A stretch of 64,000 nt of DNA from NCBI GenBank assembly GCA_030753015.1, contig JASMDC010000001.1, positions 165,467-229,466 of the forward strand, written 5' to 3'. The notes beneath the pieces are model-generated. The model ran no database searches. It was not told the DNA's origin and saw nothing but the letters and a program-made list of their open reading frames with translations. The first letter of the stretch is position 1, and every line of letters begins with the position of its first letter. The translations under genes and the position numbers were made by a program. Positions 14,691 to 64,000 of the stretch are shown in pieces. Source of the stretch: Candidatus Undinarchaeales archaeon. Lineage in GTDB: Archaea; SpSt-1190; JASMDC01.

Positions 14691-14703
14691 ATACGTCAAT
14701 GCC

Positions 14704-15116: not shown

Positions 15117-15133
15117 GGATATTATATACGAGT

Positions 15134-15165
15134 GGACAATAGCGTATAACTACCTATATCTGCCC
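15134..15165 (+). mobile_element. Truncated third att site: R'' box followed by an inverted attI-like simple site
   Basis: GGACAATAGCGTATAAC complements the start of cassette 2 at 15/17 positions; the minus strand reads CAGATAT-AGGTA-GTTATAC; no partner arm found nearby. Confidence 0.55.
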
Positions 15166-15258
15166 TTTTTGTTCCGATGAAGTGTCCTTCGTCCTTAGTC
15201 GTGTATCGCCCCTGATGCGCTCTAGGTATCTTCACTTTCCGAGATCATTGCAGATGAG

Positions 15259-41890: not shown

Positions 41891-42074
41891 TGATAAACCC
41901 CAGTAATATACTCCATTACAGCGGTTTAAAACCATTTCTCGCAACGGTTTGGGAGAACGAACCGGGATGGTCCCTCCAGATTGCCTACCTCGTGAAATCG
42001 TCGGAAGTCGTCCCAAGTCGTCCCAATGCGAAGATAAGCTATTTTTTCATCCAATGGGCCAAGAAACGCCAGTT

Positions 42075-44003
42075 TCAGCAATCCTCGTCCCGGGACACGA
42101 CATTGTGATAGGTGCCTTCCCGGTCGAGCTCCACGGTGATAGGCTTCATCGCGATGTCCGGGAGCGAGCTTGTGCCCTCGACCACCTCGAGGATCATCCC
42201 CTTCGGAAGGACCGGGTAGATGGGGCGGTCCGAGCTATCCTTGGACGATACTGCTAGCAGGAGGTACTTGCCCGGATTCACCGTGGGGAACTCGATCCCC
42301 CCATCCTCATCGGTTATCGCACTAACAACGTCACCGAGGGTTGTGTCCATGGGAAAGAGGAATACCTCGACGTATGCTGGCGGCCTCCCATCGACATAGC
42401 CGAGCGGCACCGGCTCCCGTTCCTCAACCGTCTGGGATGACGCGCAGTAGACGTCGTTCCTCATGACCACCCGGCTCGAAAGGGCGCCGAATTTCCGCAC
42501 CGGGAGGGTGACTTGGCTCGCGGCCCCGATCTTTTCCTTCAAGCTCGATCTGGCGTACTCGGTCCCCTCTGCCTCGAACACGATGTCATGGACTCCGCAC
42601 GGGACGCCATCCCAGGTCGTTCCAGAGGAATAGCTCATGTCAACGTCGTTCGATGGATAGCGGCATGAGTCGATCCGGAGAGAACCTTCCATCGCTGGTG
42701 GATCGAGGTCCACCGTGAGGGAGCAGGCGCCCTGACACTGGTCCTCGATGTACTTGGGCGCTGAAACTGACTCGTTGGTAGCAGCGGACAGCTTCTGAAG
42801 ATAGGGTTCCATGTAGAACTTGAACTCCAATGGCTTGATCTCGGATGACGTCCCGGCGGCGCCGACGACCTTTGCCGAGGGTAGGAGGTCGCGAAGGATG
42901 ATCTTGACGGGGAAGTGGATGGAGTAGTTCATCTTGTACCCCCCCGTACAATCGCCCGAAGGGGACAGACCGAAGGGACCGAGTCTGAAGAAGTACACCG
43001 TGTCGGTCGAGCGGTAATCGGGCTTATCCTCGTTGGCGATGAAGGAGAACTTGAACTCGTTCTCATAGAGGTCGAAGGTCCACTCTACGAACTCCATGAC
43101 CTTCTCGATATCAGCCTGTTCCATCCCGGTGAATGTCTCCACTCCACTGAAGTCGGCTTTGCGTACGCGGCGCATCTCGTTAGCGACAGCCAGGCGGGAA
43201 TGTTCCCGGAAGGGCTCGATAAGGTTCCCATGCTTCGAGAGGGGATTCCCATCGGTCGAGATCACGCTGATCTCGTACCGAGCATCCTGGTCACAGGACG
43301 GGATGCCCTTGCAGCAGTCACCACCCGGTTTGGGGATGCGCGGATCCGACGTGATGCTGTCGAAGATGGAGTCCTCCATGGTCCGGGCGTCGATGTAGCT
43401 CTCGACATAGTACACTGCGATGTCGTGCAGAAACTTGAGCCGGAGCGGCACGTTGACATCGAACTCGATGTCGGTCTTCACTTCCTCGCCCTCAGCCCTG
43501 ATGCGGACGGGAAGGCTCAACCGTGCCGTGATGGAGTTGTCCAGTAGGGTGACGTTAGCCTTTGGGAATCCGAAGGAGTAGAGGTCCCTGCGTAGGGTCT
43601 TCTGCAGCTCAAGGACACGCTCCTTGACGTTGCGCTCGATCTCCTGGACCATCATCTGCTCCATTACCTGGCTCGTGGGTATGTTCACGATTTTTCCCTC
43701 GTAGAACCAGTAGGGGACGCCCAGGTGGCTCAGAGGTGGATGGTTCTCTTTTGTATAGCCGCCATGCGCGGCCATCTCCTCTGCGGACTCGTGGACAGCA
43801 GCCTCGAGGAACCGCTCCAGGGAGGATTGGACCGACTCGAGCTCGTTACGGACCGTTTCCGATTGTATCTCTTGTCGACGTACTTCGGATTCCGTCTTCC
43901 CTCTGGAGAACATCGTGTAGAGCACGAAGATGACCACCACCGCCAGGGCCATGATGCCAAACAATGCAATCTGTCCCCGGGTGCCTTTACGCCTCATGTG
44001 CAT
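42075..44003 (-). CDS. Large protein with class III (pilin-like) signal peptide
   Basis: RRKGTRG|QIALFGIMALAVVVIFVLY matches the archaeal [KR]G|Q prepilin pattern; HGGY and VPYWFY motifs; C-terminal carboxypeptidase-regulatory-like beta domain. Confidence 0.7.
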   Translation of the reverse strand: MHMRRKGTRGQIALFGIMALAVVVIFVLYTMFSRGKTESEVRRQEIQSETVRNELESVQSSLERFLEAAVHESAEEMAAHGGYTKENHPPLSHLGVPYWFYEGKIVNIPTSQVMEQMMVQEIERNVKERVLELQKTLRRDLYSFGFPKANVTLLDNSITARLSLPVRIRAEGEEVKTDIEFDVNVPLRLKFLHDIAVYYVESYIDARTMEDSIFDSITSDPRIPKPGGDCCKGIPSCDQDARYEISVISTDGNPLSKHGNLIEPFREHSRLAVANEMRRVRKADFSGVETFTGMEQADIEKVMEFVEWTFDLYENEFKFSFIANEDKPDYRSTDTVYFFRLGPFGLSPSGDCTGGYKMNYSIHFPVKIILRDLLPSAKVVGAAGTSSEIKPLEFKFYMEPYLQKLSAATNESVSAPKYIEDQCQGACSLTVDLDPPAMEGSLRIDSCRYPSNDVDMSYSSGTTWDGVPCGVHDIVFEAEGTEYARSSLKEKIGAASQVTLPVRKFGALSSRVVMRNDVYCASSQTVEEREPVPLGYVDGRPPAYVEVFLFPMDTTLGDVVSAITDEDGGIEFPTVNPGKYLLLAVSSKDSSDRPIYPVLPKGMILEVVEGTSSLPDIAMKPITVELDREGTYHNVVSRDEDC

Positions 44004-47000
44004 CCCACCACGTATCGGCCGGGATTGGACTTCACTTGGAGGTCCGTACGCTTCGATTCGACGACACCCTGCGGAGTATGGATCTCCACGAGCAGCTCCA
44101 CTGTGCTACCGCCGTTCGGTGGATGCGGACAGAGGGAGATGTCTGAGAGATGCAATCTGACACCCGATGTCGTGCTGACAAGATAGGCGAGGTTCTCTGT
44201 AACGTTCCGATCCCCGATGAACACACGGAAGTTACGCTCGGAGACGTCGATGGTTCCTTTGATCTGGAGGAATACGTCGAGATTGAAGCCCATCACAGCA
44301 AGGTAATGGATGAGCGGCTCGTTGTCGTTGCCCGGGCTCGCTCGCTGGATTCTGAAGTCGAGAGGGACATAGTCCGTAACTTCGATGGGCTCTTTCGAAT
44401 TACCAATGCGCCCGAGGTGCTCGATGGCAACAGATATGGCCTGTTCGGTGGGCAGGGTGGTGTACACAATCAGGTGCTCCATCTCCTCACGGACGGCGAG
44501 CTCATGGCCCTGTCCGTCGTCCGTCCGAACAGCGGCCTTGATGTTGTTATCGTCCAAGGCGAATTCGATCCATTCATTGCCGGATGCTAAGGTGATGGTT
44601 CGGTCATCAGCGCTCTTGGAGATCTCGGCATACTCCATCCAGTCCTTACCGAACGTGCGCCGTAGGTAGCTCCGCACTTTTCCATTGTCGGTGCCCGGAA
44701 CCTCGTTCCAGGTGAAGAGGAGTGTGTCCATGAACGTCGTTGATAGCTGCCAACGGTCCGAGAGCTTGTTATATGTCGGTGTGAAGTCAGCGGGCGTGAG
44801 CCCTCCGAACGTGATGTTGAAGGCCTTCTTGGGTAGGTTCACCACGGACCTTCCATCGAGGTCCTGGACGACCGCATCGGTCTGGAGCGGGAAACCGATC
44901 TCGAAGTCCTTGGGCCGCACCCTGTCCGGCTCGATGTCGTGCAGGCTCACTCGCAGGAACGATTCGTCCTCAGGGTACCATACCTCGAATGGCCGCCGGA
45001 TGACATGGATGTTGCCTTTGTACCCGATTACAATGAAGACCTCGTAATCCCCGGGCGGCAGATCCGCTGTGAAGGATGCCTCGATCTTCCAGCCGCCGGC
45101 ATGGTCGTCGTGTACCTTCTTGATGGTGGGCGCATTGAGGGCTTCATGGTCGTGGAGGGACGCGTTCACGTTGAGCTCGTCGAGCGCTTCCTCCTCGAGA
45201 AGTACTCCCTCGTACCTGATGTTCCCGCGCCAGATGACGTTCACGGCGTCCGTTCGGAGCACGTCCGCCCTGACATGATCGGGTTCGAGATCGAGAAGCG
45301 AGAACTCGAGGTTGGACGGGGCACATCCTCCCTTGGCGCACATCTCACCGATAACGCAGGTGGCCTCGGGATTCTTGTCCTTGCCGAGGCAGATGCAGGT
45401 GCCCATGCATACCTCTCCGATATCGATGCACGAGAGCGTCTGGAGGCCGCTCTTGGCCATACACTCTCCCTCGGACTCAATGATGATGAAAGGGCTCTTG
45501 ATACGCTGCTCGGTGCAGTCGGAGGGGCTACAATATCTTCCGTACTCACACACGTCAAGGACGTCACCTGTCTCCTTATCGAAGCAGAGGCAGAGGGGGA
45601 TGTCGGAGGACGAAGGAGTACAGGTCTGCCCCGTCTGGATGCACGGGAGGGTCGCACCGAGAACGTGCATGGAACCGCCATCGCACACCTCTGACTGGGG
45701 TGTGCGGAGCTGGGGTCGCCACTCCGAAACCTCGATCATGTTCACCGAACCGCCGACGTTCTGGTTGTCGCGGTAGGCCGTGGTCTGGATTGTATAGGCT
45801 CCCGGATCGAGCGAGGGATCGAGGCTGAGCTCAGCGTTGCCACATCCGAGCGACTCCTCCTCCATCACCTTGATGCCGTCCTGATTGAACACCTGGACAC
45901 TGCATATGTCCCCCGGCGCGTCGGTGTAGAGGGAGACATCCTCGCCGGCCTTGTACACGTCCTTGTCGGTTTTCGTATCAGCAGGCATTACTCCACCGAC
46001 ACCGATCAGTTCGAAACGGGCAGTAGCACGGCCGACAAGGCCCTGGTGATAGCCCTCCACTTCCACAAGGTAAGTGCCGGGCGCCCACGAAGTGGACGTG
46101 CCCACGACCACGTTCGTACACGTCTGGAGCTCCAAGGTGTTCTTCTTGGTCCAGAACGAATCATAGACGTTCACCGTGCACCCTTCCAAAGGCTGTGCTG
46201 GGTGGACATCCAGCACGAGGCCGGTCCCCAGATGGACGGATGTCCGCTCTGTCACGAGACGGATCGCTAGGGGGGGTTCGGCCAGCCTGAACTCCTGCTT
46301 GATATACTCCATGGCGTCGCCGCGCACACCGATGATATGGAGGTCATAGAGAACGGCGTCCATGGAGCCGTCAGTGGGGATAACGAGCTTCTCACAGGAC
46401 GAGCCGAAGGCCTTGGCGACCGGTCGGTCATCTCCTCGTTCCGTGAGGGCCGCGATGCAGAACTTGAAGCTGCCTGAAACCTCACCTACCTTCTCGATGT
46501 CGATGGTGTCGCCAACAGTATGGTCGCCACGTTCAGGCGCCTTCAGGGAGAAAGCATCCATCGCCACCATGCGTCCGGCCAGGGTGAAGTTCGATTCCAG
46601 GGTCAGGTCGGTGACATTGGCCACCCGTAGCGTATAGAGCGAAGGATAGGTGATACGCAGCTTCCTGCCGTAGGTGAACACGCCTGGGATGAGGTCGAAC
46701 TGTTTCGGCCGATAGTGGAGCGTGAACTCGACCTCAAGGCTCTCTCCTTCAATCGTGAAAGTGTTGAAGCTGATACGCGGGACCTCGCCCAGGGTGAACC
46801 TCACAAGGTCCTCCTGCTTAGTGATCGTTGAGTAGGTGTGGTCGAATATATCGAACCGTTTTTCGAGCGCCAGCTCGTCAAGCTCGTCCACGTATCCGGG
46901 TGACAGGCTCATGTCATAGTCCACCGAGATGATCGCGTGCTTGAAGTTGAGCACCTCCACTCTTTCGAGGATGCTGTCCGCGACGAGGTAGCCCCTGTAA

Positions 47001-47092
47001 CCCGAGGCGAGGCAGAGGAGTGCGAGGGCCAGAGCGGCAGCACCGCGGAACACCAGCAGGCCGTGGTGATTCATATCACTACCTCTACGCAT
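43994..47092 (-). CDS. Large secreted Ig-like/Cys-rich protein
   Basis: Signal peptide; TDKDVYKAGE MG2-like motif; two Cys-rich repeats; overlaps the next gene by 10 bp. Confidence 0.75.
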   Translation of the reverse strand: MRRGSDMNHHGLLVFRGAAALALALLCLASGYRGYLVADSILERVEVLNFKHAIISVDYDMSLSPGYVDELDELALEKRFDIFDHTYSTITKQEDLVRFTLGEVPRISFNTFTIEGESLEVEFTLHYRPKQFDLIPGVFTYGRKLRITYPSLYTLRVANVTDLTLESNFTLAGRMVAMDAFSLKAPERGDHTVGDTIDIEKVGEVSGSFKFCIAALTERGDDRPVAKAFGSSCEKLVIPTDGSMDAVLYDLHIIGVRGDAMEYIKQEFRLAEPPLAIRLVTERTSVHLGTGLVLDVHPAQPLEGCTVNVYDSFWTKKNTLELQTCTNVVVGTSTSWAPGTYLVEVEGYHQGLVGRATARFELIGVGGVMPADTKTDKDVYKAGEDVSLYTDAPGDICSVQVFNQDGIKVMEEESLGCGNAELSLDPSLDPGAYTIQTTAYRDNQNVGGSVNMIEVSEWRPQLRTPQSEVCDGGSMHVLGATLPCIQTGQTCTPSSSDIPLCLCFDKETGDVLDVCEYGRYCSPSDCTEQRIKSPFIIIESEGECMAKSGLQTLSCIDIGEVCMGTCICLGKDKNPEATCVIGEMCAKGGCAPSNLEFSLLDLEPDHVRADVLRTDAVNVIWRGNIRYEGVLLEEEALDELNVNASLHDHEALNAPTIKKVHDDHAGGWKIEASFTADLPPGDYEVFIVIGYKGNIHVIRRPFEVWYPEDESFLRVSLHDIEPDRVRPKDFEIGFPLQTDAVVQDLDGRSVVNLPKKAFNITFGGLTPADFTPTYNKLSDRWQLSTTFMDTLLFTWNEVPGTDNGKVRSYLRRTFGKDWMEYAEISKSADDRTITLASGNEWIEFALDDNNIKAAVRTDDGQGHELAVREEMEHLIVYTTLPTEQAISVAIEHLGRIGNSKEPIEVTDYVPLDFRIQRASPGNDNEPLIHYLAVMGFNLDVFLQIKGTIDVSERNFRVFIGDRNVTENLAYLVSTTSGVRLHLSDISLCPHPPNGGSTVELLVEIHTPQGVVESKRTDLQVKSNPGRYVVGCT

Positions 47093-47119
47093 CTACGGGC
47101 TCAATATATTAAATAGCTA

Positions 47120-48139
47120 TCAGGAACCGATATCGGCCGATTCGGGCTCCTTCTTATCGATCCGTGCGCGCTTGAGGTCATCGCGGAGGACGAGGCGATT
47201 CGTGTTCCCCATCCTCTCCTTGCGGAGCACGCTTCGTGACTCAAGGTCCATGACCAGACGGCTGAGCTTGGACTTGGAAATGTCTAGCTTTACCAGCAGG
47301 TCGCGCTGCTTGAGCCTCCCGCCGGCGTGGATCAGGGATTCGACGACCGCCTGCTCGTCCTCCGTGAACACCGAAAGGACAGAGGGCCGCTTCTGTGTAG
47401 CCCAACGGCCAAAGGAGAACAGCGCCAATCCGATGAGGAGACCGACCACGATACCTTGAGGTGTGATGGATTGGTATACCTCTTTGACCTCTTCCTTTGG
47501 GCGCGTGAACCGAGCGAATACACTTATGCTGTCATCGGCGGTGACGTTGGTACGGGCCCATACGAGAAGTAGGTGCTGCCCGTCAGTCTTGAGCTCAGCT
47601 GGCGGGAACAGGACGGAATGCGTCTGCGCTGCCATCCCGCCTACGGGGAGTATATAGCCGGGGGGGAGTTGCACTGTGAGGGAGAAGTCACTGATTGGAG
47701 TAGAAGGATTATATGTCGTACGGAACTCAAGATCCTCCCCTTCCTTGCGTACGAACTGGTCTGTTGTGAAGGATATCGAATAATGACGGTCCTTGCCCGG
47801 GAGCACGGGATAGGTGAACGTGATGTTCACGAGTTTGATCCACTGGTTCTCTGCCACGGTCCATGAGACGTCCTCCCCTACACCGCGGACCGCGATGTCC
47901 TGAACGTCCCGAACGACCGTGAAGAAGGCGTTGCGGATCGGCTCTTGGCCAGTGTTGCGGATGTGAACATCGATGGTCTCATGGCAGGTGCCATTGGGGA
48001 TTACTGCGATCCGCATATAGTACTCCTCATACACCTTTCCCTCGTCCCCGACGGCGGGGCTAAGGAGCGTGAGCACCGCAAGGAGAAGAACACTAAGGAG
48101 ATGGACCCGGGAGTACACTGGGTAGTGGGTGTGGCTCAC
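47120..48139 (-). CDS. Membrane-anchored protein with external domain and C-terminal winged HTH (COG2512-like)
   Basis: Signal peptide, beta domain, TM, then TEDEQAVV...GGRLKQRDL...SKSKLSRLVMDLESR...RMGNTN. Confidence 0.8.
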   Translation of the reverse strand: MSHTHYPVYSRVHLLSVLLLAVLTLLSPAVGDEGKVYEEYYMRIAVIPNGTCHETIDVHIRNTGQEPIRNAFFTVVRDVQDIAVRGVGEDVSWTVAENQWIKLVNITFTYPVLPGKDRHYSISFTTDQFVRKEGEDLEFRTTYNPSTPISDFSLTVQLPPGYILPVGGMAAQTHSVLFPPAELKTDGQHLLLVWARTNVTADDSISVFARFTRPKEEVKEVYQSITPQGIVVGLLIGLALFSFGRWATQKRPSVLSVFTEDEQAVVESLIHAGGRLKQRDLLVKLDISKSKLSRLVMDLESRSVLRKERMGNTNRLVLRDDLKRARIDKKEPESADIGS

Positions 48140-54353: not shown

Positions 54354-56036
54354 CTACAGTCGCCTGAGCACTTCGTCGACGACCTGCGTGGATGTCTGGC
54401 CCGAGGTACCGTGGTCGACCTCCTTTACGAGCTCCTCCATCCGGTCGAGGCTCAGGCTCTTGGCGTGGGCGGCCTCCATGAGCCTGATGGTGTTGTCCGC
54501 CACGGTGGTGCCGGTGTCGCCACCTGTGTCCTCGTACCGGTCCACGTTCCACATCAGGTCGGTGACGTCGTCCTCGGAGTCGCCGTAGGCCTTCATGGCG
54601 TCCATGAGCTTGACCGTCTCGGCCACGACCTCGGCGCCGGTCTGGCCTCCGGTGTTCTCCCACCGGTCCACGGCGTACATGATGTCGGTGGCGTCGTCCT
54701 CTGACAGACCGTTCCGCTTCATGGCGTCCATGAGCTTCACGGCACCGTCCACGACCGATGCCCCCGTGTCACCGCCGCTGTCGTTGTACCTGTCGATGGC
54801 CCACATGATGTCCGTGGCCTCGCTCTTGGACACACCGTTCCGGTGCATTGCGTTCATGAGCTTCACGGTCTCGGTCACTACCTCGGCGCCGGTCTGGCCA
54901 CCCGTGTCCTCGTACCGGTCGACGGCCCACATAAGGTCGGTGGCCTCGTCCTCGCTGACACCGTTCTCGTGCATGCCCTTGGCGATGCGGAGGGCGTCGG
55001 CGACGACCTCGGTGGCAGTCTGTCCGCCGGTGTCGTTGTAACGGTCCACGCCCCACATGATGTCCGAGAGGTCGCTCCGGGACACGCTGTAGGCCTTCAT
55101 GCCCGCGATGAGCTTGACCGTGTTGGCTGCGAGGATGTCGGCGGTGTCATCACCTGTGTCCTCGAACCGGTCCACGTCGTAGATGACGTCTTTAACGTCG
55201 TCGATGGAGATGTCGTGCTCATTGGCCGCGTCGACCACTTGGGAGGTGGCCTTGGCCAGCGCAATGGCCCCGTCGGAGCCGGTGTCCTTGTGGTAGTCGA
55301 GGGTCGAGAGCACCTGCCCTACCTGGTCGATGGGGATGCCTGTGGCTGCGCTCGTGTTGCCCAGCACGCTCACCGCCTCGATGAGCTCGGTGCTGGTAGG
55401 AGTGGTGTCGGCGTACTTGGCGACATTGCCGATCAGCCCGGCCACGTCCTTGGGCGTGGGGATGTGATCTTCCTGCACCAACCTGCCGATGAGCTCGCGG
55501 GAGAATACCGTCGCCTCTTCGGCGGATGCGATCTTCGACGCATTGCTGGTGATGGCCTCGACGATGACCTGCTGGCCCACCTCGGTGTAGGACGTGGTGA
55601 GCACATCCATCGCTTCGCCGGCGGTCATGTACCCGATGGCACTGTCAACGTCCATGCCCTTGTCCATGCAGTAGTCGAGGAGGAAGTCGGTGTGGCTGCC
55701 CGTGTAGCCGTGCTCCGTGGCGGCCTCGAGCACCTTGTCCGCCGTCCGCGCGAGCTCTGCGGGATCGTCGTCGATAGCGAACGAGCCCGCGATCCGGCGC
55801 ATGACGTACTCGGCCTGGTCCGGCGAGACCGCGTCGTACTTCCCGGCCACCTGCTCGGCCTCGGCGTCCATGTCGTTGCCGTGCTCAGCTATCTTGATGA
55901 GCCCGAACAGCCCGAACCCCAGCGCTGTCAGGACTACTCCTGCCTTGTTCTTGGATGAGAGATCCTCGGCCTGGGCGTAACCCTCGGCAGTATCGGCATG
56001 TCCGTAGGCACCGTCAAGGTCGAGGTCGTACGTCAT
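54354..56036 (-). CDS. Repeat-protein paralog 4 (560 aa; 7 repeats of 42 aa, loop DR[YFW][EN]DTGG)
   Basis: Shared N-terminus YDLDLDGAYG...EDLSxKNKAG + hydrophobic segment + GSFAIDDDPAELA + LLDYCxDKGM. Confidence 0.85.
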   Translation of the reverse strand: MTYDLDLDGAYGHADTAEGYAQAEDLSSKNKAGVVLTALGFGLFGLIKIAEHGNDMDAEAEQVAGKYDAVSPDQAEYVMRRIAGSFAIDDDPAELARTADKVLEAATEHGYTGSHTDFLLDYCMDKGMDVDSAIGYMTAGEAMDVLTTSYTEVGQQVIVEAITSNASKIASAEEATVFSRELIGRLVQEDHIPTPKDVAGLIGNVAKYADTTPTSTELIEAVSVLGNTSAATGIPIDQVGQVLSTLDYHKDTGSDGAIALAKATSQVVDAANEHDISIDDVKDVIYDVDRFEDTGDDTADILAANTVKLIAGMKAYSVSRSDLSDIMWGVDRYNDTGGQTATEVVADALRIAKGMHENGVSEDEATDLMWAVDRYEDTGGQTGAEVVTETVKLMNAMHRNGVSKSEATDIMWAIDRYNDSGGDTGASVVDGAVKLMDAMKRNGLSEDDATDIMYAVDRWENTGGQTGAEVVAETVKLMDAMKAYGDSEDDVTDLMWNVDRYEDTGGDTGTTVADNTIRLMEAAHAKSLSLDRMEELVKEVDHGTSGQTSTQVVDEVLRRL

Positions 56037-56059
56037 CGTTCGTCTTCTCTCCGTGGGAC

Positions 56060-57751
56060 CTACTTCAGTGCCTTGAGTACTTCATCTACAAGTTTGCTTG
56101 TCGACTGGTTATTGGCGACCTGGTCTGCCTGGTTCAGGTGCTCCACCATCTTGGACCGTGAGATGCCCTTCTCATGCATGGCCTTGAGCAATCGAACGGT
56201 GTTGTCCACGAGCACGGTACCGGTATCGCCGCCAGTGTCCTCGTACTGGTCCAGGTTGGATATGAGGTTCACTGTGTCTGAACGGGATGTAGTGTACTTC
56301 TGCATGGCGTCCATGAGCTTGAGGCTCTCGGTCACCAGCTCTGTGCCGGTCTGGCCTCCCACGTCCTCGTACTGGTCCACGGCGTTCATGATGTTGACCG
56401 CGTCGGAGCGCGAGACGCCGTATTGCTTCATGCCTTCCATGAGCCGGAGGGACTCGGTCACCAGTGAGGTACCGGTCTGGCCACCCACGTCGTCGTACTG
56501 GTCCACAACGTTCATGATGCTGACGGCATCGGAGCGCGATATGCCATACTGCTTGATCCCCTCCATCAGGCGGAGGGATTCGGTCACCAGCTCGGTACAG
56601 GTCTGGCCTCCTACGTCCTCGTAGGAGTCCACGACGTTCATGATGTTGACCGCGTCGGAGCGCGAGATACCGTACTTCTTCATGCCCTCCATGAGCCGCA
56701 CGCTTTCCTGGACGAGGGTGGTACCGCTGACGCTGCCCACGTCCTCGTAGGAATCCACGACACTCATGATGTTGACCGCGTCGGAGCGGGATACGTCATT
56801 TTCATCCATCCCCTTCATGAGGGCACTGACGTTCTCGGCCAGGGAAGAGGCCGTGTCGGAACCAAGGTCCTCGTACTGATCAATATTGATGATGAGGGCA
56901 CGGGCATCCCCGGGGGACACGCCGTTCTCGTGAGCCGCGTCCATGACCTTGACGGTGTTCTCCACGAGAGAGCCTGCACCGTCCGTGCCGGCGTCCTTGT
57001 AACCGTCGAGGGTCGTGAGAACGTTGACCGCCTCGCTGAGGGTGAAACCGTCCCGGGCGCCGGCAGCACCCAGGGTAGTGACCGCCTCGATGAGCTCGGA
57101 GCTGGAGGGCTTGACGTCGGCGTAGCGAGCGACATTGGATATGAGGTCCGCCATGTTCTGGGGTGTCTGGAGGTAGTCCTGCTGGACCATCTTGTCGATG
57201 AGCTTGTGCGAGAAGGCGGTGGCGTCCTCCAGGGAGTCCACCTTGGAAGCACTGCGGGTGATGGCGTCGGTGATGATCTTTTCACCAGCCTCCATGTAGG
57301 TGGAGTGGAGCACTTCCATGGGCACGTCTGCCGTCATGTAGGCGACAGCCTCGTCCACGGACATGCCCTTGTCCATTGCATAGTCGAGGAGGAATGTGAC
57401 GTGGTTGCCCGAGTAGCCGTGGTCGGTGAACGTCGAGAAGAGCTCGTCGGTCCGCTGGGCCAGCTCGGCAGGATTATCGTCGATGGCGAAGGAGCCGGAG
57501 ATGCGGCGCATGACGTACTCGGCCTGGTCAGGTGTGACCTTGTCATACTGAGAAGCGATCCCCTCGGCCTCAGCGTCCATCTCGTTGCCGTGCTGGGCGA
57601 ACTTGATGAGCCCGAAAAGACCAAAACCGATGGCGCCCAGGACAACGCCTGCCTTGTTCTTGGAGGAGAGGTCCTCGGTCTGAGCGTAGCCGTCGGCAGC
57701 ATCTGCCCGTCCGTAGGCACCGTCCAGGTCGAGGTCGTACACCATGGTCAC
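56060..57751 (-). CDS. Repeat-protein paralog 3 (563 aa; 7 repeats of 42 aa, loop D[SQ]YEDVGG)
   Basis: Same N-terminal module; repeats such as DSYEDVGGQTCTELVTESLRLMEGIKQYGISRSDAVSIMNVV. Confidence 0.85.
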   Translation of the reverse strand: MTMVYDLDLDGAYGRADAADGYAQTEDLSSKNKAGVVLGAIGFGLFGLIKFAQHGNEMDAEAEGIASQYDKVTPDQAEYVMRRISGSFAIDDNPAELAQRTDELFSTFTDHGYSGNHVTFLLDYAMDKGMSVDEAVAYMTADVPMEVLHSTYMEAGEKIITDAITRSASKVDSLEDATAFSHKLIDKMVQQDYLQTPQNMADLISNVARYADVKPSSSELIEAVTTLGAAGARDGFTLSEAVNVLTTLDGYKDAGTDGAGSLVENTVKVMDAAHENGVSPGDARALIINIDQYEDLGSDTASSLAENVSALMKGMDENDVSRSDAVNIMSVVDSYEDVGSVSGTTLVQESVRLMEGMKKYGISRSDAVNIMNVVDSYEDVGGQTCTELVTESLRLMEGIKQYGISRSDAVSIMNVVDQYDDVGGQTGTSLVTESLRLMEGMKQYGVSRSDAVNIMNAVDQYEDVGGQTGTELVTESLKLMDAMQKYTTSRSDTVNLISNLDQYEDTGGDTGTVLVDNTVRLLKAMHEKGISRSKMVEHLNQADQVANNQSTSKLVDEVLKALK

Positions 57752-59298
57752 TGTGCCTCCGTCATCCGTTTGATGGTCTCGTCGGCGAGCTCCATGGCGT
57801 TCTGGCTGCTGGCGGCCCCGTCTGCGTCCTTGATGAGCCCGATGACCGTGTCGAGGGAGGTCTTGTACTGGGACATGCCAGCTATGAGCGTAGCAGTCCC
57901 CTCGCCAAGCTCGCTGGCCTTGGAGCTGTCATCAGCGTAGTAGTCGAGCTTCTTGAAGAGCGTGATAGCGTCGTCCTGGGAGATGTCGTACGTGTCGCAC
58001 GCCTCGATGACCTTGACGGTACCGTCTGCCAGCTCATGGGCCTTGGTGCTGGAGTCGGCCCAGTAGTCGAGCTTCTGGAAGAGCTTGATGGCCTGGTCGT
58101 GGGATACGTCATACTTGTCACTGACCTCGATGAGCTTAACAGTGCCGTCGGCCAGCTCGTGTGCCCTTGTGCTCGAGTCGGCATAGTAGTCGAGCTTCTG
58201 GAATAGCTTGATGGCCTGGTCGTGGGATACGTCATACTTGTCACAGGCCTCGATGAGCTTGGCCGCGCCCTCACCCAGCTCGTCGGCCTTCGTGCTCTTA
58301 TCGGCGTAATAGTCGAGCTTCTTGACGAACGTGATGGCCTGATCGTGGGAGGCGCCGTGCTCCCCGCGGGCCTCCAGGATCTGCTGGGTGCCGGTCATCA
58401 GCTCCTCGGCGGTCTCGCTGGTGTCTGAATAGTAATCAAGGCTCTTGATGGTGGCCGTGATGTCGTCCGTGGGGATGTCGTACTGCTTGGCGGTGGTCAG
58501 GAGGTTCGCTGTGCCGTCGGACAGCGAGGTGACCGTGTCCCCGGATTTGTTCTCGCTGTGGTCGATCTGGTTCAGGACGGTCAGCACCTTGTCGAACCCG
58601 ACACCGGCCTGTTCCGAGGCCTCAGAGAGGGTGGTGTAGGCGGCGATGAGCTCGGCGCTGGTCGCCCTGGTATCGGCGGCGTTGCCGATCCCGCGGATGA
58701 ACCGGGCCATTTCCTCAGGCGTCTGGGCGTATCCGTCAGTGATGAGCTTCTCGGTCATTTGATTAGCGAAGGCCTGGGCCTCCTCCGTGGATCCGACCTT
58801 GGATGCACCCTTGATTGCATCGAAGATGGCCTGGGGTCCGGTCTCGGTGTAGACGGTGTGGAGGATGTCCGTGGCCTGGTCGCCGGTCATGTAGGTGATG
58901 GCTTCATCGACCTCCATGCCCTTGTCGGTGCAGTAGTCGAGGAGATAGGTGAGCTGGTTCCCGCTGTAGCCATGGCCAGTGGCCTGACCGATGAGCTGGT
59001 GGGCCTGCTGGGCGAGCTCGGCGGGATCGTCGTCGATGGCGAAGCTACCGGCGATCTCGCGCATGACATACTCGGCCTGCTCCGCTGAGACGCCCTCGTA
59101 CTTGGATGCGACCTGTGCGGCCTCCTCGTCCATGTCGTTGCCGTGCTGAGCGAGCTTGATGAGCCCCATGAGGCCGAAGCCCGCAGCGGTCAGCACGATG
59201 CCCGCGGTGTTCTTTCCGGAGAGATCCTCGGCCTGGGCGTACCCGTCGGCAGCATCTGCCCGTCCGTAGGCACCGTCCAGGTCCAGGTCGTACGTCAT
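57748..59298 (-). CDS. Repeat-protein paralog 2 (516 aa; 6 repeats of ~41 aa, loop DYYADSS)
   Basis: Same N-terminal module; repeats such as DYYADSSTRAHELADGTVKLIEVSDKYDVSHDQAIKLFQKL. Confidence 0.85.
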   Translation of the reverse strand: MTYDLDLDGAYGRADAADGYAQAEDLSGKNTAGIVLTAAGFGLMGLIKLAQHGNDMDEEAAQVASKYEGVSAEQAEYVMREIAGSFAIDDDPAELAQQAHQLIGQATGHGYSGNQLTYLLDYCTDKGMEVDEAITYMTGDQATDILHTVYTETGPQAIFDAIKGASKVGSTEEAQAFANQMTEKLITDGYAQTPEEMARFIRGIGNAADTRATSAELIAAYTTLSEASEQAGVGFDKVLTVLNQIDHSENKSGDTVTSLSDGTANLLTTAKQYDIPTDDITATIKSLDYYSDTSETAEELMTGTQQILEARGEHGASHDQAITFVKKLDYYADKSTKADELGEGAAKLIEACDKYDVSHDQAIKLFQKLDYYADSSTRAHELADGTVKLIEVSDKYDVSHDQAIKLFQKLDYWADSSTKAHELADGTVKVIEACDTYDISQDDAITLFKKLDYYADDSSKASELGEGTATLIAGMSQYKTSLDTVIGLIKDADGAASSQNAMELADETIKRMTEAQ

Positions 59299-59309
59299 GT
59301 GCTTTTCCT

Positions 59310-60734
59310 CTATTTCATCCGCCGGATCATCTCGTCCACGACCTCGTAGGCGTCGTAGCCGGAGTTGTCGCGGTCGACGTCTTTCATGAGCTCGGTCATC
59401 TTTGCGAGCGATAGCTTATGCTGGGTCATGGGCTCCATGAGCTTGACGACGTTGTCGGCGATGTCACCGGCGTTCACGCTGCTGTCCGACGCGCGGTCGA
59501 GTGCCTTGGCGAGCGCCGCGGCGTCATCGGTTGAGATGCCGTACGCATTGCACCCCTCCACGAGGTTGGCGGCGTTGCCGGCCAGGTCGATGGCGTGCTC
59601 GCTAACGTCGGAGGCGCGATCGAGTGCCTTCACGAAGCCGATGGCGTCGTTGTAGGGGACCTCGCTCTTGTGGCTGGCGTCCATGATCCTGATAGCGCTG
59701 GTCACCAGGTTCGAAGCGTGCTCGCTGTAATCCGAGCCACGATCGAGCTCCTTGATTAGCCCGATGGCGTCCTCATGGGACACGCCGTACCGGCCGCGGG
59801 CGTCCAGCAGCTTGATAGAGCCGCTGATCAGGTCGTCCGCGTGCTCGGAGTAGTCCGATGCGCGGTCGATGTCCTTGATCGTACTAGCGATGTCGTCGAA
59901 CGCGATATCGTGCTGCTTGGCCGTCGTCAGTAGGCGGGCGGTGCCGTTCGCCACCGAGATGACGGAACCTCCCGTGTAGTCCTCGGCGCTGTCGATGGCC
60001 TCCATAACGTCGACACCCTGCTCGAGGGAAGCGCCGGTCTGTGCACTGGTCTCGGCAAGGGTCCTGTAGGCCTGGATGAGCTCGCCGCTGCGTGTGGTGA
60101 CGTCGTCGGCCCCCCCGATGTCCTTGATGATGGTGGCTATGTCGTTGGGGGTGTACCTGCTCCCGTCGGCGATGAGCTGGTCGTTGACCTGCTTGGCGAA
60201 GGCCTGTGCGTCGTGTTCCGATCCGATGGAGGACGCGTCGTCGACCGCCTCGTAGATGATGTTCTGGCCTACCTCGCCGTAGGTGGCGGAGAGGACGTCA
60301 GCTGCGCCCTTTGCGGTGATGTGCGCCACAGCGTCGTCGACGGACATGCCCTTGTCGACACAGTAGTCGAGGAGGAAGGTGACCTGGTTGCCGGTGTAGC
60401 CATGGGAGGTGGTTGACGAGAGTATGTCGTCCGCTGTCCGCGCCAGCTCGGCCGGATCGTCGTCGATGGCGAACGAACCCGCCACCTTGCGCATGACGTA
60501 CTCGGCCTGGTCGGCGGACACACTCTCGTACTTGGACGCGACCTGCTCGGCCTCCTCGTCCATGTCGTTGCCGTGCTGGGCGACCTTCACCAGGCCCAGA
60601 AGACCGAACCCCAGGGCTGTCAGCGCGATGCCGGCCTTGTTCTTACCGGAGAGGTCCTCGGCCTGGGTGTAACCGTCTGCGGCCTGGGCGTGCCCGTAGG
60701 CGTCCGTTGTCAGGTCGAGGTCGGCGGCGTACAT
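59310..60734 (-). CDS. Repeat-protein paralog 1 (474 aa; 5 repeats of ~41 aa, loop DRASDYSE)
   Basis: Same N-terminal module; repeats such as DRGSDYSEHASNLVTSAIRIMDASHKSEVPYNDAIGFVKAL. Confidence 0.85.
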   Translation of the reverse strand: MYAADLDLTTDAYGHAQAADGYTQAEDLSGKNKAGIALTALGFGLLGLVKVAQHGNDMDEEAEQVASKYESVSADQAEYVMRKVAGSFAIDDDPAELARTADDILSSTTSHGYTGNQVTFLLDYCVDKGMSVDDAVAHITAKGAADVLSATYGEVGQNIIYEAVDDASSIGSEHDAQAFAKQVNDQLIADGSRYTPNDIATIIKDIGGADDVTTRSGELIQAYRTLAETSAQTGASLEQGVDVMEAIDSAEDYTGGSVISVANGTARLLTTAKQHDIAFDDIASTIKDIDRASDYSEHADDLISGSIKLLDARGRYGVSHEDAIGLIKELDRGSDYSEHASNLVTSAIRIMDASHKSEVPYNDAIGFVKALDRASDVSEHAIDLAGNAANLVEGCNAYGISTDDAAALAKALDRASDSSVNAGDIADNVVKLMEPMTQHKLSLAKMTELMKDVDRDNSGYDAYEVVDEMIRRMK

Positions 60735-60736
60735 CG

Positions 60737-61327
60737 CTAGTTACCGTCCTCGCTATCGGACGTCGACTCGGTCTTGTCGAAGAAGTAGGCTTCCTCGAAG
60801 GCCTCGTACAGCTGCTGCCCATCGGCGAGCTTGGTGTCGAGGGCGGGTCGGTGCTCGCTCTCCAGCGAGCTCAGCTTGCCCTTCTCGGTGGCGTTGATAG
60901 CGACGGTGCCCGCGCCCTCCACCACGTACATGTCCGTGAGGTAGCCGGCCACGAGCCCCAATCCTCCGGTCAGGATGGCGACGAGGGGTCCACCGGCAAG
61001 ACCGGTGATGAAGCCGTAGGTGGCCATGCCCAGAGGGGTGGCCACCTGCACACCCTTGTGGATGTTGCCGGGCTCGCACCGCTCGTCCAGGTCCTCGCGG
61101 ATGTCCCTGTACTTGCGGGTGATGTCACGGAAGCCGTCGTGGTAGGTACTGACCTCCGAGTGGAGCTCGGTGAAGTAGTCCTTGAGGGCGCGGTTGGGCG
61201 CGTCCTTCACAAGGAGGTCGAGCTTCTCGTCGATGGTCCTGTAGGAGTCGGCCAGCCCCGTGCCGGAGTAGTCGGCCTCCAGGATCGTTTGGAATGCGTC
61301 AAGGTATTCTGCGTCCATCATGATCAC
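60737..61327 (-). CDS. Helical protein with central glycine-zipper hydrophobic hairpin
   Basis: GMATYGFITGLAGGPLVAILTGGLGLVAGYLT flanked by acidic amphipathic helices; no signal peptide. Confidence 0.75.
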   Translation of the reverse strand: MIMMDAEYLDAFQTILEADYSGTGLADSYRTIDEKLDLLVKDAPNRALKDYFTELHSEVSTYHDGFRDITRKYRDIREDLDERCEPGNIHKGVQVATPLGMATYGFITGLAGGPLVAILTGGLGLVAGYLTDMYVVEGAGTVAINATEKGKLSSLESEHRPALDTKLADGQQLYEAFEEAYFFDKTESTSDSEDGN

Positions 61328-61328
61328 C

Positions 61329-62969
61329 TCACAGGAACTTCATGTCCCCCCTATGTCCGGAGTGCTGTGATGCGTACCGGTCGACGTCGTTCTCGTGCCG
61401 CCCGATGCGGTGCGCGATATCGTAGAGCTTCTCGGCCATGCCGTCCAGGTCGGCGGGATCGACATCCTTGCCGTCAACCACCACCTTGTAGGCCAGGACC
61501 TGGCCGGGATTGCTCCACATGTTGTGACCGTAATCTGTCTCGTGATAGTACCAGTCGCCGCCCTTGCACAGCGCCCAGACGTAGACGTGCTCGATGCCGC
61601 TTGGGTTCTGCCAGGTGCCCTTGTTGAGGTTGAAGTACTCCTCGCCGATGAGGCTGAGCCCGTTTGTAGAGCCGCCGTTCCAGGATTCGATCTGCTTGAG
61701 CGCCTCGATGCGCTTGGCACCGGGGGACTGCTGGGGGTCGAGGTTGTACGCGGTGCGCGAGGGCTCCACGAGCCCGTACTGGTCGAGCACCTTGAATCCA
61801 TCGGACCGCGGGCTGATCCCATCGTTGCCGATGTCCTGGAGCGTGTCCCGGTAGACGCTCGCGGCGTTCTGGAGGCCGCGGAGCTGGATCATCTCGTCGC
61901 TCAGCTTCCCCTCGACGCCCTTGAGCTTCTCTTCGTAGGCCTTGATGGTGACGTTCAGCTCCTCCATCCGTGCCGTCTCGTCGTGGATGGTGAGGGAGTA
62001 GGGCTGGGCCTTCTCCTCCTTGCTGGCGATCTCGCCCTTGAGCATGTCTTGGCGGCCCTTGGCGTTGTCGAGCATGCGCTCGTACCGATGGACGCTCTGC
62101 TCGTCGAGATTACGTCCGCCGAAGGAGGTCTTTTCCAGGGCACTTTCCTCCTCGAGGATCTTGACGTACTCCTTGCCCCGGCCCAGGAAAGAGACCGAAC
62201 CGCCAGCGTCGAGCATCTGGTCGCGGGCGGCCAGCACCTTCTCGGCTTTGTTGCGGTCGTAGACGACGGACTGGAGCTCGGTCCGCATCTCGTTGATCGT
62301 TTCAATGCGGCTGTCCAGTTCCTCCTGATTGGCCTTCCGCTCGGCCGAGAGCTTCTCCCACTCCTGTTGACTCGCAAGGTACTCGGCGGTCTGTGCGATT
62401 TCCTCCTTGTCGCCCTCCAGGCCGCTCAGCTTGGACTGCTGCTCCTTGATCTCGCCTAAAAGATTCTTATAGGGCTTGTCCAACGTCCGGTAGCGGACCT
62501 CCTTCTCGGCGATGCCAGCGTTGTGGAGCACGTCCAGGTCCTCGGCGAGCTTGCCCTCGGGATCGATGAACTCGGAGCCCTTCCCGACCACGCGCTCGTA
62601 CACGTCAGCGTTGCGCATGTCGTTGAACCAGGTAGTGAGATAGCCGTTGTCGCTCACGCTGATGTTCGTGGCCCCCGAGTCGATGGGGTAGATGCCCAGC
62701 GTTCTGATGATGTAGCGGTGGGCGCCCCAGGGCCGTGCTCTGGTCATCTCGGTCATGACCTTCTCCATGGTGGAGCCCTCATTGGTGCCTCCTGGTGCGG
62801 CGTGCTGTCCGCGCCGGCCCCGACGACCGCCCGCCTTCTGGGCGTTCACGCGGCCTTCCTTGGTCGGGTGCAGCGACATGATGACCTCAGCGGCCTCGTC
62901 GCCGTTGATAGGTGATAGCGTATCGGGAACCCAATCCCCTGCCGGTCCTCTCCATCCCATTTTATGCAT
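61329..62969 (-). CDS. Long coiled-coil protein with small globular termini
   Basis: About 220 aa of E/K/L/Q heptad-like sequence; aromatic-rich C-terminal domain; overlaps the upstream gene. Confidence 0.75.
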   Translation of the reverse strand: MHKMGWRGPAGDWVPDTLSPINGDEAAEVIMSLHPTKEGRVNAQKAGGRRGRRGQHAAPGGTNEGSTMEKVMTEMTRARPWGAHRYIIRTLGIYPIDSGATNISVSDNGYLTTWFNDMRNADVYERVVGKGSEFIDPEGKLAEDLDVLHNAGIAEKEVRYRTLDKPYKNLLGEIKEQQSKLSGLEGDKEEIAQTAEYLASQQEWEKLSAERKANQEELDSRIETINEMRTELQSVVYDRNKAEKVLAARDQMLDAGGSVSFLGRGKEYVKILEEESALEKTSFGGRNLDEQSVHRYERMLDNAKGRQDMLKGEIASKEEKAQPYSLTIHDETARMEELNVTIKAYEEKLKGVEGKLSDEMIQLRGLQNAASVYRDTLQDIGNDGISPRSDGFKVLDQYGLVEPSRTAYNLDPQQSPGAKRIEALKQIESWNGGSTNGLSLIGEEYFNLNKGTWQNPSGIEHVYVWALCKGGDWYYHETDYGHNMWSNPGQVLAYKVVVDGKDVDPADLDGMAEKLYDIAHRIGRHENDVDRYASQHSGHRGDMKFL

Positions 62970-63938
62970 CCTCCTCCAGGGTGTATATCATCCCTGCACT
63001 TGCGTCCACGTATACGTCCATCCCGTCCTTGAGATCACGGGTGACGTCCTTGACGCCGACGAGCGTGGGGATACCGTTCTCGCGGGCGGTGATGGCGGCG
63101 TGACAGGTCTTGCCGCCCTCCTCGGTGATCATGGCTACTGCGCGGAGCATACGTTCGCCGCTCTGGTCCTCGTTGTAGATGAGCGAGGTCATGTCAGGAG
63201 TGGTCTCCCGGGCCACGAGGACGTAGTTCTCGAGGTCGTCCGGGACGTCGGAGGGCTTCTCCACGATGCGTACCTCGCCGTGGGCGGTCCCGCCCCAAAC
63301 ACGATGGCTGCGGTCCAGCTCGTAGAGCACATTCGCATCGGAAGGCACCTCGTGGTGCGAGAAATCCCGGTCCTCGTCCTTGACGGTGAGGGCGCGGGCC
63401 TGGGTGATATAGATCGTGTCGCCTTCGATGGCCCACTCGATGTCCATGTCCTTGCCGTACTCGGCCTTGATGACCTTGGCGATGCGGGTGAGCTCCTTGA
63501 CCTGAGCGTCGGTGATGCACTGCTTGTCACGCATGTCCGTCGGCACGGGGACGAACTCGGTCCCCTTGTCGGAGAACACGCACATCTTAGCTTTGGCGTC
63601 GATGTAGCGCTCAGTGATCTCTCCGGACTCGGGATCGACGATGAACTCGTCGGGCGTGACCTTACCGGATACGACGGATTCTCCCAGTCCGTAATTTGCG
63701 TCGATGATGATGACGTCATCGCCGCTGTCCACGTCCTTGGTGAACAGGGTACCGGCAGCGGTCGAGTTGATCTGGCGCTGGACCACCACGCCCATGGAGA
63801 CGTGCTGCCCAAAGCCGTTCTCGCTGCGATAGCGGATGGCCCGCGGAGTGTAGAGCGAGCCCTGACAGGTCGCGGTCTTGTCGAGGACGTCGTCGAGGCC
63901 CTCGACATTGTTGTAGGAGTCGTGCTGGCCTGCGAACT
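62962..63938 (-). pseudogene. PEP synthase-like dikinase (ATP-grasp plus phosphohistidine swivel domain only), 5' end interrupted
   Basis: Frame extends beyond the ORF track to FAGQHDSY...RAIRYR...VVVQRQI...GLGESVVSG.VTPD...DIEWA...QARALT...TTPD...GGKTCHAAITARENGIP; ends after VDASAG; upstream sequence is non-homologous with an in-frame stop. Confidence 0.8.
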
Positions 63939-64000
63939 GCTTTGTTGCATAACTAACCTTTTCTCGGCTCCAATCCCTTGTCCTCTTCGACAGTCAGGTC
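63939..64000 (-). mobile_element. Probable end of an IS5-family (IS903-group-like) element
   Basis: GCTTTGTTGCATAAC resembles the IS903 terminal repeat GGCTTTGTTGAATAA; a minus-strand frame DLTVEEDKGLEPRKG* stops right at it; coincides with loss of dikinase homology. Confidence 0.55.

Follow-up and report, generated by a model that had tools for sequence, protein, structure and literature searches.

Gene content and layout of the cluster

We analyzed the last 64 kb (hereafter the window) of contig C29 from the genome of an uncultured marine archaeon of the Candidatus Undinarchaeales, the end of the window being also the end of the contig. Next to this end lie seven minus-strand genes encoding a truncated dikinase related to phosphoenolpyruvate (PEP) synthase, a coiled-coil protein, a small protein with a hydrophobic hairpin and four paralogs built of helical repeats, designated P1 to P4. 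We describe the cluster as a clade-restricted chromosomal operon; it is not a provirus. The source genome (G000) measures 3.85 Mb, and comparisons below involve that of a congener (G001, about 3.6 Mb, estimated to be 99% complete with 5% contamination). The features are as follows, with lengths in amino acids (aa).

54354-56036, minus strand: paralog P4 (560 aa), 8 repeat units, DNA repeat array at 54510-55121; modeled with AlphaFold2 (AF2); G001 ortholog 84% identical
56060-57751, minus strand: paralog P3 (563 aa from a GTG start), 8 units of the 42-aa type, DNA repeat array at 56294-56875
57748-59298, minus strand: paralog P2 (516 aa), leader, transmembrane helix, N-terminal module, 7 units of the 41-aa type, DNA repeat array at 57938-58350
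59310-60734, minus strand: paralog P1 (474 aa), leader, transmembrane helix, N-terminal module, 6 repeat units
60737-61327, minus strand: hairpin protein (196 aa), helical N-domain, Gly-rich hydrophobic hairpin, acidic tail
61329-62969, minus strand: coiled-coil protein (546 aa as listed among the open reading frames (ORFs)), transmembrane segment absent by hydropathy
62962-63935, minus strand: 3' part of the dikinase gene (about codons 127-450); ORF at 62962-63795, frame open to 63993; PF01326 and PF00391 domains
63936-64000, no strand assigned: terminus of an insertion sequence (IS) element, abutting the dikinase gene at the contig end and truncating it
First ~55 codons of the genes starting at 56036, 57745, 59298 and 60734, minus strand: common leader, detected with a leader hidden Markov model (HMM)

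An original prediction, made from the sequence of this stretch, had singled out seven tightly packed minus-strand genes, and this layout is confirmed: overlaps and gaps measure at most 23 nucleotides (nt). From the dikinase to P4, the first junction is an overlap of 8 nt; gaps of 1, 2 and 11 nt follow, then an overlap of 4 nt and finally a gap of 23 nt. Sequences resembling Shine-Dalgarno motifs, GGAGG or GAGGA, precede several of the start codons. For two genes a start slightly downstream of that listed is likelier. An ATG at 57745 would give P3 561 residues and restore the MxYDLDLD N terminus of its family, and an ATG at 62960, also chosen by gene callers and preceded by GGAGG at 9-10 nt, would give the coiled-coil protein 543 residues. 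Both species keep a TATA-like box about 56-63 nt upstream of the kinase start, behind a purine-rich stretch; it reads TTTAAATA in one genome and TATAAATA in the other.

In G001 the entire cluster lies on a single 81.6-kb contig, with the same gene order. It comprises an intact 450-aa dikinase gene, coiled-coil and hairpin genes whose products are 89% and 90% identical to those of G000, and three paralogs, of the P2 type (83%), the P3 type (75%, interrupted by a run of N) and the P4 type (84%). P1 has no one-to-one ortholog there, its best match (48%) being the P2-type gene; a 474-aa protein of the P1 type (P0009) is found, with P4-type and coiled-coil proteins, on another long contig in the protein collection. 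The linkage that the original prediction proposed to check is thus kept in G001, a test made within one genus only. Nei-Gojobori ratios of non-synonymous to synonymous substitution (dN/dS) between G000 and G001 are 0.17 for the kinase, 0.14 for the coiled-coil protein, 0.125 for the hairpin protein, 0.18 for P2 and 0.19 for P4, compared with 0.09 and 0.16 for two neighboring genes. Since all five ratios fall within 0.12-0.19, we consider the operon genes to be real and under selection. Within the paralogs, leader, N-terminal module and repeats are each constrained (0.10-0.25).

A truncated relative of archaeal PEP synthase

The window holds codons ~127-450 of the dikinase gene. This fragment covers the C-terminal part of an ATP-grasp domain (PF01326, PPDK_N, 6.9e-41) and a phospho-His swivel domain (PF00391, 1.8e-20) that carries the GGKTCHAAITARE motif, and it is 90% identical to residues 126-450 of the intact ortholog in G001 (L021:12279-13631, 450 aa). 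The latter has a full ATP-grasp and His swivel and ends where the PEP/pyruvate barrel would begin. It is this ortholog, and not the incomplete gene in the window, that bears out the barrel-less dikinase of the original prediction.

The missing 5' part in G000 coincides with an IS element. Homology to the G001 dikinase begins at window position ~63936, and the final ~65 nt of the window are found with 100% identity at nine places in eight contigs (C29 included), within 20 nt of contig ends. The same sequence stands, inverted, at both ends of the 1400-nt contig C2, which encodes a 309-aa DDE transposase (DDE_Tnp_1, PF01609, E 9.7e-14). The element is thus a multi-copy IS of about 1.4 kb with 16-nt inverted ends and a DDE transposase and, as its sequence occupies nine contig ends, it fragments the G000 assembly. 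Dikinase codons 1 to ~126 are not in this assembly, where tblastn returned only paralogs at 31-36% identity. The region upstream of the gene lies at the end of contig C60, which holds the gene of a DRG-type GTPase and the intergenic spacer and stops 2-3 nt before the position of the dikinase start codon. Either the G000 gene is disrupted by the IS element, or it has been broken by assembly ambiguity around a polymorphic copy.

The dikinase derives from an archaeal PEP synthase (PpsA), of which it keeps the ATP-grasp and the swivel. Against the PpsA models NF005057 and TIGR01418, the G001 protein scores 365.6 bits (cut-off 598) and 349.7 bits (cut-off 739.75), matching positions 4-462 of the 798 of NF005057; the first score falls below its cut-off because the barrel is missing. 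Scores against pyruvate phosphate dikinase (PPDK) models, 73.8-75.9 bits, are far below these 350-366 bits. Aligned to a solved archaeal PEP synthase (8a8e), the dikinase covers residues 9-481 of 817 and ends at the equivalent of residue ~484, its T-C-H motif facing the T-S-H motif of the enzyme; the PEP/pyruvate barrel of about 330 aa found in archaeal PpsA such as 8a8e is absent. In sum, of the features of a PEP synthase it shows the ATP-grasp and the swivel with its His motif, and neither the PF02896 barrel nor a score above cut-off. No free-standing barrel able to complement it was found when G000 was searched for PF02896: the only such domain lies within the 840-aa frame of a bona fide PpsA (C84:37367-39886).

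Relatives are widespread, with matches at E<=1e-30 in 326 of 401 archaeal genomes; among those listed outside G000 and G001, open frames range from 501 to 1196 aa, almost all from 740 to 900 aa. In a collection of 5.8 billion proteins, 116 of the best 120 of 1323 relatives carry PF02896, two are the barrel-less orthologs (85-100% identical), and the remaining two are labeled partial and come from contigs of 2.6-3.3 kb. Identity to full-length PpsA enzymes is 34-41% over residues ~4-445, including the His motif GG.T.HAAI..RE.GIP. It reaches 36-41% with the PpsA of Archaeoglobi, Hadarchaea, Hydrothermarchaeota, Thermoplasmata and Methanomassiliicoccus and only 33% with the resident PpsA of G000. 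Being closer to the enzymes of other archaea than to the resident one, the dikinase is best seen as a clade-specific truncated PpsA paralog and not a recent copy. These sequence comparisons suggest either an old paralog or a transfer.

Four membrane-anchored helical-repeat paralogs

The N-terminal module of about 230 aa that the original prediction had ascribed to the four paralogs is borne out by a 12-member alignment, with invariant residues in the leader, in a KN motif, in the transmembrane helix and in the motifs GSF.ID..P.EL and LLDY..DKGM. The leader, of about 30 aa, is acidic, with invariant Y3, Y11 and Y20, and is followed by an E-D-L-S-x-K-N motif. Next comes a transmembrane helix (~32-52) in which A38, G40, F41, G42, L43, G45 and L46 are invariant across the 12 sequences, forming a G-F-G-L-x-G-L face, and a conserved helical module extends onward to residue ~235. 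The proteins are acidic throughout (isoelectric point (pI) 4.2-4.3).

The 41-42-aa helix-loop-helix repeats, likewise predicted, are seen at the DNA, protein and AF2-model level. The DNA arrays have a period of 126 nt in P4 and P3 and of 123 nt in P2, with 72-82% matches, and the number of units at i-E<0.01 grows from 6 in P1 and 7 in P2 to 8 in both P3 and P4. The AF2 model of P4, built from 12 sequences (pLDDT, a per-residue confidence score, 77.9; pTM, its global counterpart, 0.70), is all-alpha with 25 helices and shows a helix-turn-helix every ~42 residues from ~215 to 541. Judging from this model, the fold class is a two-helix alpha-solenoid. For this model, Foldseek ranks designed alpha/alpha toroids and transcription activator-like (TAL) effectors highest in PDB (E 5e-7 to 3e-4, TM-scores 0.13-0.32), and the family profile matches designed helical repeat proteins among PDB sequences. 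The likeness to TAL effectors and designed repeats is one of repeat size and helix-turn-helix geometry, with no sequence relationship; membrane anchoring and acidity argue against a TAL-like binding of DNA. Calcium-binding loops of the EF-hand kind are hinted at by a match of P4 to EF-hand_8 just above the cut-off (28.5 bits, cut-off 28), in a loop that on inspection does not have the canonical ligand positions.

The family has a narrow distribution. In sets of 61 and 401 genomes, it was found in two, in each case G000 and G001, and the N-terminal module is present in nine of the 5.8 billion proteins, all 56-88% identical. The only distant member is a metagenomic protein of 371 aa (P0012; E 3.4e-25, 21-25% identity) from an AT-rich organism, encoded on a 1537-nt contig with no neighboring genes. 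It keeps a remnant of the leader, the transmembrane glycines, the N-terminal module and about four repeats. A homolog at 21-25% identity implies that the paralog family is older than the genus. Metagenome scans with the family alignment and with P0012, from which records of G000 or of a very near genome may have been left out, returned no relative, and a scan of genome contigs returned the G001 contig only. Conservation of the glycine face of the transmembrane helix as far as P0012 is not what one would usually expect of a simple anchor and suggests specific helix packing, among the paralogs or with the Gly-rich hairpin of the 196-aa protein.

The coiled-coil and hairpin proteins

The coiled-coil protein has a basic Gly/Arg patch near residue 50 and, in a hydropathy scan, no hydrophobic segment. 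Its AF2 model, of low confidence (pLDDT 44.9), shows long helices at ~188-380 and a beta-rich C-terminal domain. Residues 1-67 are constrained too (dN/dS 0.12). Relatives are limited to three of the 5.8 billion proteins, all from the same clade, and to two of 17 genomes of the phylum; a search of the Atlas gave no usable match.

By hydropathy, the hairpin protein consists of a helical N-domain of ~95 aa, a Gly-rich hydrophobic hairpin of 39 aa at ~97-135 and an acidic tail, both ends probably lying on the same side of the membrane. It had been called a glycine-zipper protein. The Gly-rich hydrophobic stretch is there; however, no Gly-zipper family of Pfam matches at E<=0.1, the sole Pfam match at this level being FadA (0.083), and no Pfam, NCBIfam, PHROG or PADLOC family is found. 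Among 151 archaeal genomes, it is present in G000 and G001, with one additional weak match of 52 residues. The kinase, coiled-coil and hairpin genes are all single-copy in G000.

For the two globular parts of the coiled-coil protein, the N-domain of the hairpin protein and the N-terminal module of the paralogs, Pfam (E<=10) and PDB sequence searches returned nothing meaningful. With the operon proteins as a whole, PADLOC returned nothing beyond coiled-coil noise (LmuB and JetC, at E of at least 3e-4) and PHROGs only short matches to families of unknown function. On these comparisons, the six non-kinase proteins are confined to the clade, apart from one distant metagenomic homolog.

A lineage-specific N-terminal leader

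When iterated on all stop-to-stop ORFs of G000, the leader HMM converges on 28 ORFs: the four paralogs and 24 others, such as C74:14789-16087 (minus strand), C41:31616-32695 (minus strand), C20:43130-43882 (plus strand) and C77:922-1857 (plus strand). An alignment of 23 leaders gives 28 matches in G000 and 34 in G001; the 149 other archaeal genomes searched, with the other 15 of the phylum among them, yield none. At the extreme N terminus, the motif reads M-x-Y-D-[LIVM]-D-L-[DE], followed by G-Y, then G-Y-x3-[DE]-D-L and a Gly/Ala-rich hydrophobic segment. One or two Lys/Arg directly precede the transmembrane helix in most members.

We scanned nine of the 24 non-paralog ORFs with Pfam for their cargo. 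Above cut-off are FG-GAP_3 in one (6.9e-45), TSP3_bac in one (6.8e-24) and Transglut_core in four, with a fifth below cut-off, and a LOR/Scramblase-type domain in one; one ORF has no domain. In two leader ORFs, L-S-G-C follows the hydrophobic stretch directly and gives way to a Ser/Asp/Pro-rich linker, in the manner of a lipobox. Based on the FG-GAP, TSP3 and transglutaminase-like cargo and the two lipobox-like motifs, we infer that leader and hydrophobic segment act as an export or anchor signal particular to this lineage, which keeps the N-tail in the cytoplasm and places the cargo outside. A class III (prepilin-like) or double-glycine leader was considered and rejected: by inspection, the 28 leaders have no constant cleavage motif, are ~30 aa long and acidic, and show variable spacing from K/R to G/A before the transmembrane segment.

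Leader extensions common to many otherwise unrelated surface proteins of one lineage are known from autotransporters (ESPR) and from Gram-positive surface proteins (YSIRK-G/S). There too, conservation extends to a motif ahead of the export signal's hydrophobic core. The present leader differs in being acidic, Tyr-rich and archaeal and in its restriction to one genus among the genomes searched. Carried in each genome by some 30 proteins with no other relation to each other, and found in 2 of the 151 archaeal genomes searched, it is a candidate for a new archaeal export or anchoring signal.

Truncated and split dikinases in other organisms

Truncated dikinases as such are already known. VadK (Rv1127c) of Mycobacterium tuberculosis is described as a truncated PPDK acting as a regulatory histidine (di)kinase, which consists of ATP-binding and His domains only, with no complementing barrel in the genome (PMC13400623). 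As reported there, VadK autophosphorylates with ATP and Mg, has methylcitrate-cycle enzymes as interaction partners and gains solubility on co-expression with its operonic partner (PMC13400623). The archaeal dikinase shares with it the ATP-binding and His domains, the lack of a PEP/pyruvate domain and of a free-standing barrel in the genome, and an adjoining partner gene; the VadK partner, however, is unrelated to the partners found here, and the methylcitrate-cycle enzymes targeted by VadK are not encoded in the operon. The origins differ as well: VadK descends from PPDK in actinobacteria, the operon dikinase from archaeal PpsA. The two are not orthologous, PpsA models outscoring PPDK models and 116 of the 118 best relatives other than orthologs carrying the PF02896 barrel. 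On sequence grounds, we conclude that the operon dikinase parallels VadK in architecture and arose independently, as a truncated dikinase in its own right.

Transfer of phosphate to an acceptor outside the ATP-grasp/swivel pair also has precedents. In rifampin phosphotransferase, ATP-grasp and His swivel work with an acceptor site located elsewhere; Pfam and NCBIfam detect no rifampin-binding-like domain in any operon protein. HpeHI illustrates that dikinases of this family may be divided among several polypeptides and that phenolic hydroxyl groups can serve as their phosphate acceptors, the swivel being fused to a substrate-binding domain and the ATP-grasp being separate (PMC12167813). HpeHI resembles the operon dikinase in that ATP-grasp and swivel serve an acceptor site elsewhere, and differs from it in that the operon protein carries ATP-grasp and swivel fused in one chain.

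Surroundings of the operon and other features of the window

Both flanks of the cluster are kept in G001. Upstream is a DRG-like GTPase gene (MMR_HSR1 and TGS domains) and, further away, genes that by eye resemble those of argininosuccinate synthase and lyase; downstream are an AP_endonuc_2 TIM barrel and a 521-aa membrane protein. Within the window, the neighbors of the operon include PdxS/PdxT, a HAD hydrolase, the AP_endonuc_2 protein and lectin-type surface proteins. Pfam scans of the neighborhood revealed no virion or mobile genes, the flanks being housekeeping genes. No Rfam RNA family matches in the window, and there are no tRNA genes.

The lectin-type proteins belong to what is probably a second, separate block of surface proteins, at 33992-48139. 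It comprises a 2674-aa protein with three C-type lectin domain matches (1.7e-29), two adjoining ORFs of 642 and 1032 aa with no Pfam family, and a DUF2207/DUF7343 membrane protein. Elsewhere in the window, a 700-aa protein ends in a DsbA/thioredoxin-like domain (VSR_TRX 1.6e-16, DSBA 5.8e-10), about 550 of its residues matching no family, and one segment stands out by its base composition.

14001-16000: GC content 0.49, compared with 0.55-0.67 across the remaining window
30017-32119, plus strand: 700-aa protein with C-terminal DsbA/thioredoxin-like domain
33992-42016, minus strand: 2674-aa protein with C-type lectin domains
42075-44003, minus strand: 642-aa ORF
43994-47092, minus strand: 1032-aa ORF
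47120-48139, minus strand: DUF2207/DUF7343 membrane protein

A possible surface array under phospho-histidine control

The original prediction envisaged a membrane-associated apparatus of a composition not described before. Both points stand: each paralog has one transmembrane helix and the 196-aa protein a hydrophobic hairpin, and no system of this composition is found in Pfam, NCBIfam, PHROGs, PADLOC, PDB sequences or Foldseek searches against PDB and BFVD. In the libraries and literature searched, nothing described corresponds to the six non-kinase proteins, to the leader class or to the whole cluster. The notion that the dikinase phosphorylates a scaffold would have to be narrowed. If the repeat bodies are external, as the leader class suggests, a kinase in the cytoplasm would have access to nothing of the paralogs but their ~30-aa tails; its target would then be these tails or the coiled-coil protein.

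We tentatively favor, at somewhat less than an even chance, a hetero-oligomeric surface array of solenoids of graded lengths whose assembly or turnover is controlled by a cytoplasmic phospho-His module. The solenoid bodies would stand on the outer face of the membrane, with only the short acidic tails facing the cytoplasm. The anchors would pack through their conserved glycine faces, possibly also against the hairpin protein, to yield an array whose members differ in length. The kinase would autophosphorylate on His from ATP, as shown for VadK, and pass the phosphate in trans, most likely to the coiled-coil protein, which is translationally coupled, or to the cytoplasmic tails. Such a transfer would couple the energy state of the cell to assembly or turnover of the array. 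The array itself would most likely act at the cell surface in binding or in spacing, either as an adhesin or as a scaffold of the envelope.

Several observations weigh against this reading. The kinase gene of G000 abuts the IS end and is devoid of its first ~126 codons, so that the operon may be disrupted here or in part of the population. Co-transcription of the seven genes is read from gene layout, and their linkage from one congener and from proteins on contigs of close relatives, a depth too small for proof. No phosphate-acceptor domain was found in the operon proteins, among which the coiled-coil protein is poorly modeled. Finally, one of the nine scanned leader ORFs carries a LOR/Scramblase-type domain, which is not obviously extracellular, and the strongly acidic N-tail might, in principle, be the part that is translocated (N-out, C-in), with flanking charges that are ambiguous.

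The cluster may instead consist of two unrelated adjacent units, co-transcribed accidentally at most: a cytoplasmic kinase/coiled-coil/hairpin module of metabolic or regulatory function, like VadK, and a surface-protein array. We consider this unlikely on balance but a serious contender. The site of kinase action has to be the cytoplasm, whereas the repeat bodies probably lie outside, and the 24 other leader ORFs are scattered elsewhere in the genome without neighbors of this kind, the three genes of the module being single-copy. On the other hand, the 2-nt junction between the hairpin gene and P1, like the other tight junctions, leaves no space for intergenic promoters, gene order is kept in G001, and all six non-kinase genes share the same narrow distribution. 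We find improbable an inverted topology, with the acidic tail outside and the body in the cytoplasm, which would turn the paralogs into membrane-tethered solenoid scaffolds handled directly by the dikinase and the coiled-coil protein. Short, strongly acidic N-tails preceding a transmembrane helix, as in proteins of the phage Pf3 coat type, can be translocated without a signal peptide, so the tails described here may cross likewise; the cytoplasmic operon partners and the LOR/Scramblase-like domain would also fit. The inverted topology is opposed by the Lys/Arg found directly before the helix in most members and by the FG-GAP, TSP3 and transglutaminase-like cargo and two L-S-G-C motifs of other leader proteins.

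An origin of the paralogs as domesticated or decayed phage tail tape-measure genes, the cluster being the remnant of a virus or tail-like particle, appears very unlikely, even though several automatic searches point that way. Tape measure proteins do share with the paralogs long arrays of helical hairpins. PF10145 matches P4 at 35.3 bits, above its cut-off of 33.2, which also tells against a surface array, and P1-P3 at 21.6-27.2 bits; PF20155 (TMP_3) reaches at most 32.7 bits (cut-off 41). Both families figure among the precomputed Pfam labels of relatives, Atlas leads are tape-measure clusters (score 0.81), and tape measure or minor tail proteins head the Foldseek matches in BFVD (E 3e-4 to 2e-2). 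However, none of these BFVD matches has a TM-score above 0.35, and better scores are obtained in PDB for TAL effectors and designed repeat proteins. A HMMER search of 1.84 billion representative proteins with the family profile (E<=1e-3) gave 24 hits, five of which are the family or its fragments. None of the 19 others, counting P0012 among them, reaches the PF10145 cut-off, and the 18 besides P0012 are assorted repeat proteins, including four WD40. As a ~42-residue periodic profile thus attracts unrelated repeats, the marginal PF10145 match carries little weight, and the tape-measure matches are very probably repeat artifacts. Moreover, a tblastn search of 50,697 phage records came back empty, PHROGs yielded no tail family, and TIGR01760 scored 14.3 bits (cut-off 28.8). 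Capsid, tube, baseplate and integrase genes are not present, the flanks are housekeeping genes kept in G001, and a leader with a transmembrane anchor is foreign to tape measure proteins. Automatic annotation would name the four paralogs "phage-related minor tail / tape measure protein", very probably wrongly.

Still harder to credit is the pore-forming, toxin or contact-dependent delivery complex proposed in the original prediction, toward which nothing in evidence points beyond a Gly-rich membrane hairpin protein and surface repeat proteins of variable length. No toxin, immunity or secretion-ATPase domain was found in the seven proteins with Pfam, NCBIfam, PHROGs and PADLOC. The repeats are under purifying selection between the species (dN/dS 0.15-0.25), with no diversifying selection seen at this coarse level, and the context is one of chromosomal housekeeping genes.

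The preferred reading of a surface array under phospho-histidine control has a bolder version, by analogy, to which we give little credence. The half-size PpsA-type kinase would be a new type of protein kinase, transferring phosphate from its swivel histidine to the conserved tyrosines of the acidic, cytoplasmic leaders, with the coiled-coil and hairpin proteins as a platform for docking; together these proteins would control membrane insertion or assembly of the leader-tagged surface proteins specific to this lineage. Such a reaction would resemble the phosphorylation of phenols by dikinases of the HpeHI type.

Implications

If the leader tyrosines were indeed phosphorylated, archaea would possess in this leader a protein-sorting signal not known so far, controlled by a phospho-His-driven module of its own. 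More generally, if the seven genes act together, a phospho-histidine enzyme derived from PEP synthase would have been recruited to a function of the archaeal cell envelope, and, next to VadK, a dikinase of central metabolism would for a second time, independently, have been repurposed by loss of its barrel. Genomes in the lineage of G000 and G001 measure 3.6-3.85 Mb, compared with 0.6-1.2 Mb for the other 15 sampled genomes of the phylum. Such a large genome is unusual for the phylum, and a surface apparatus of this kind bears on how the lineage lives.

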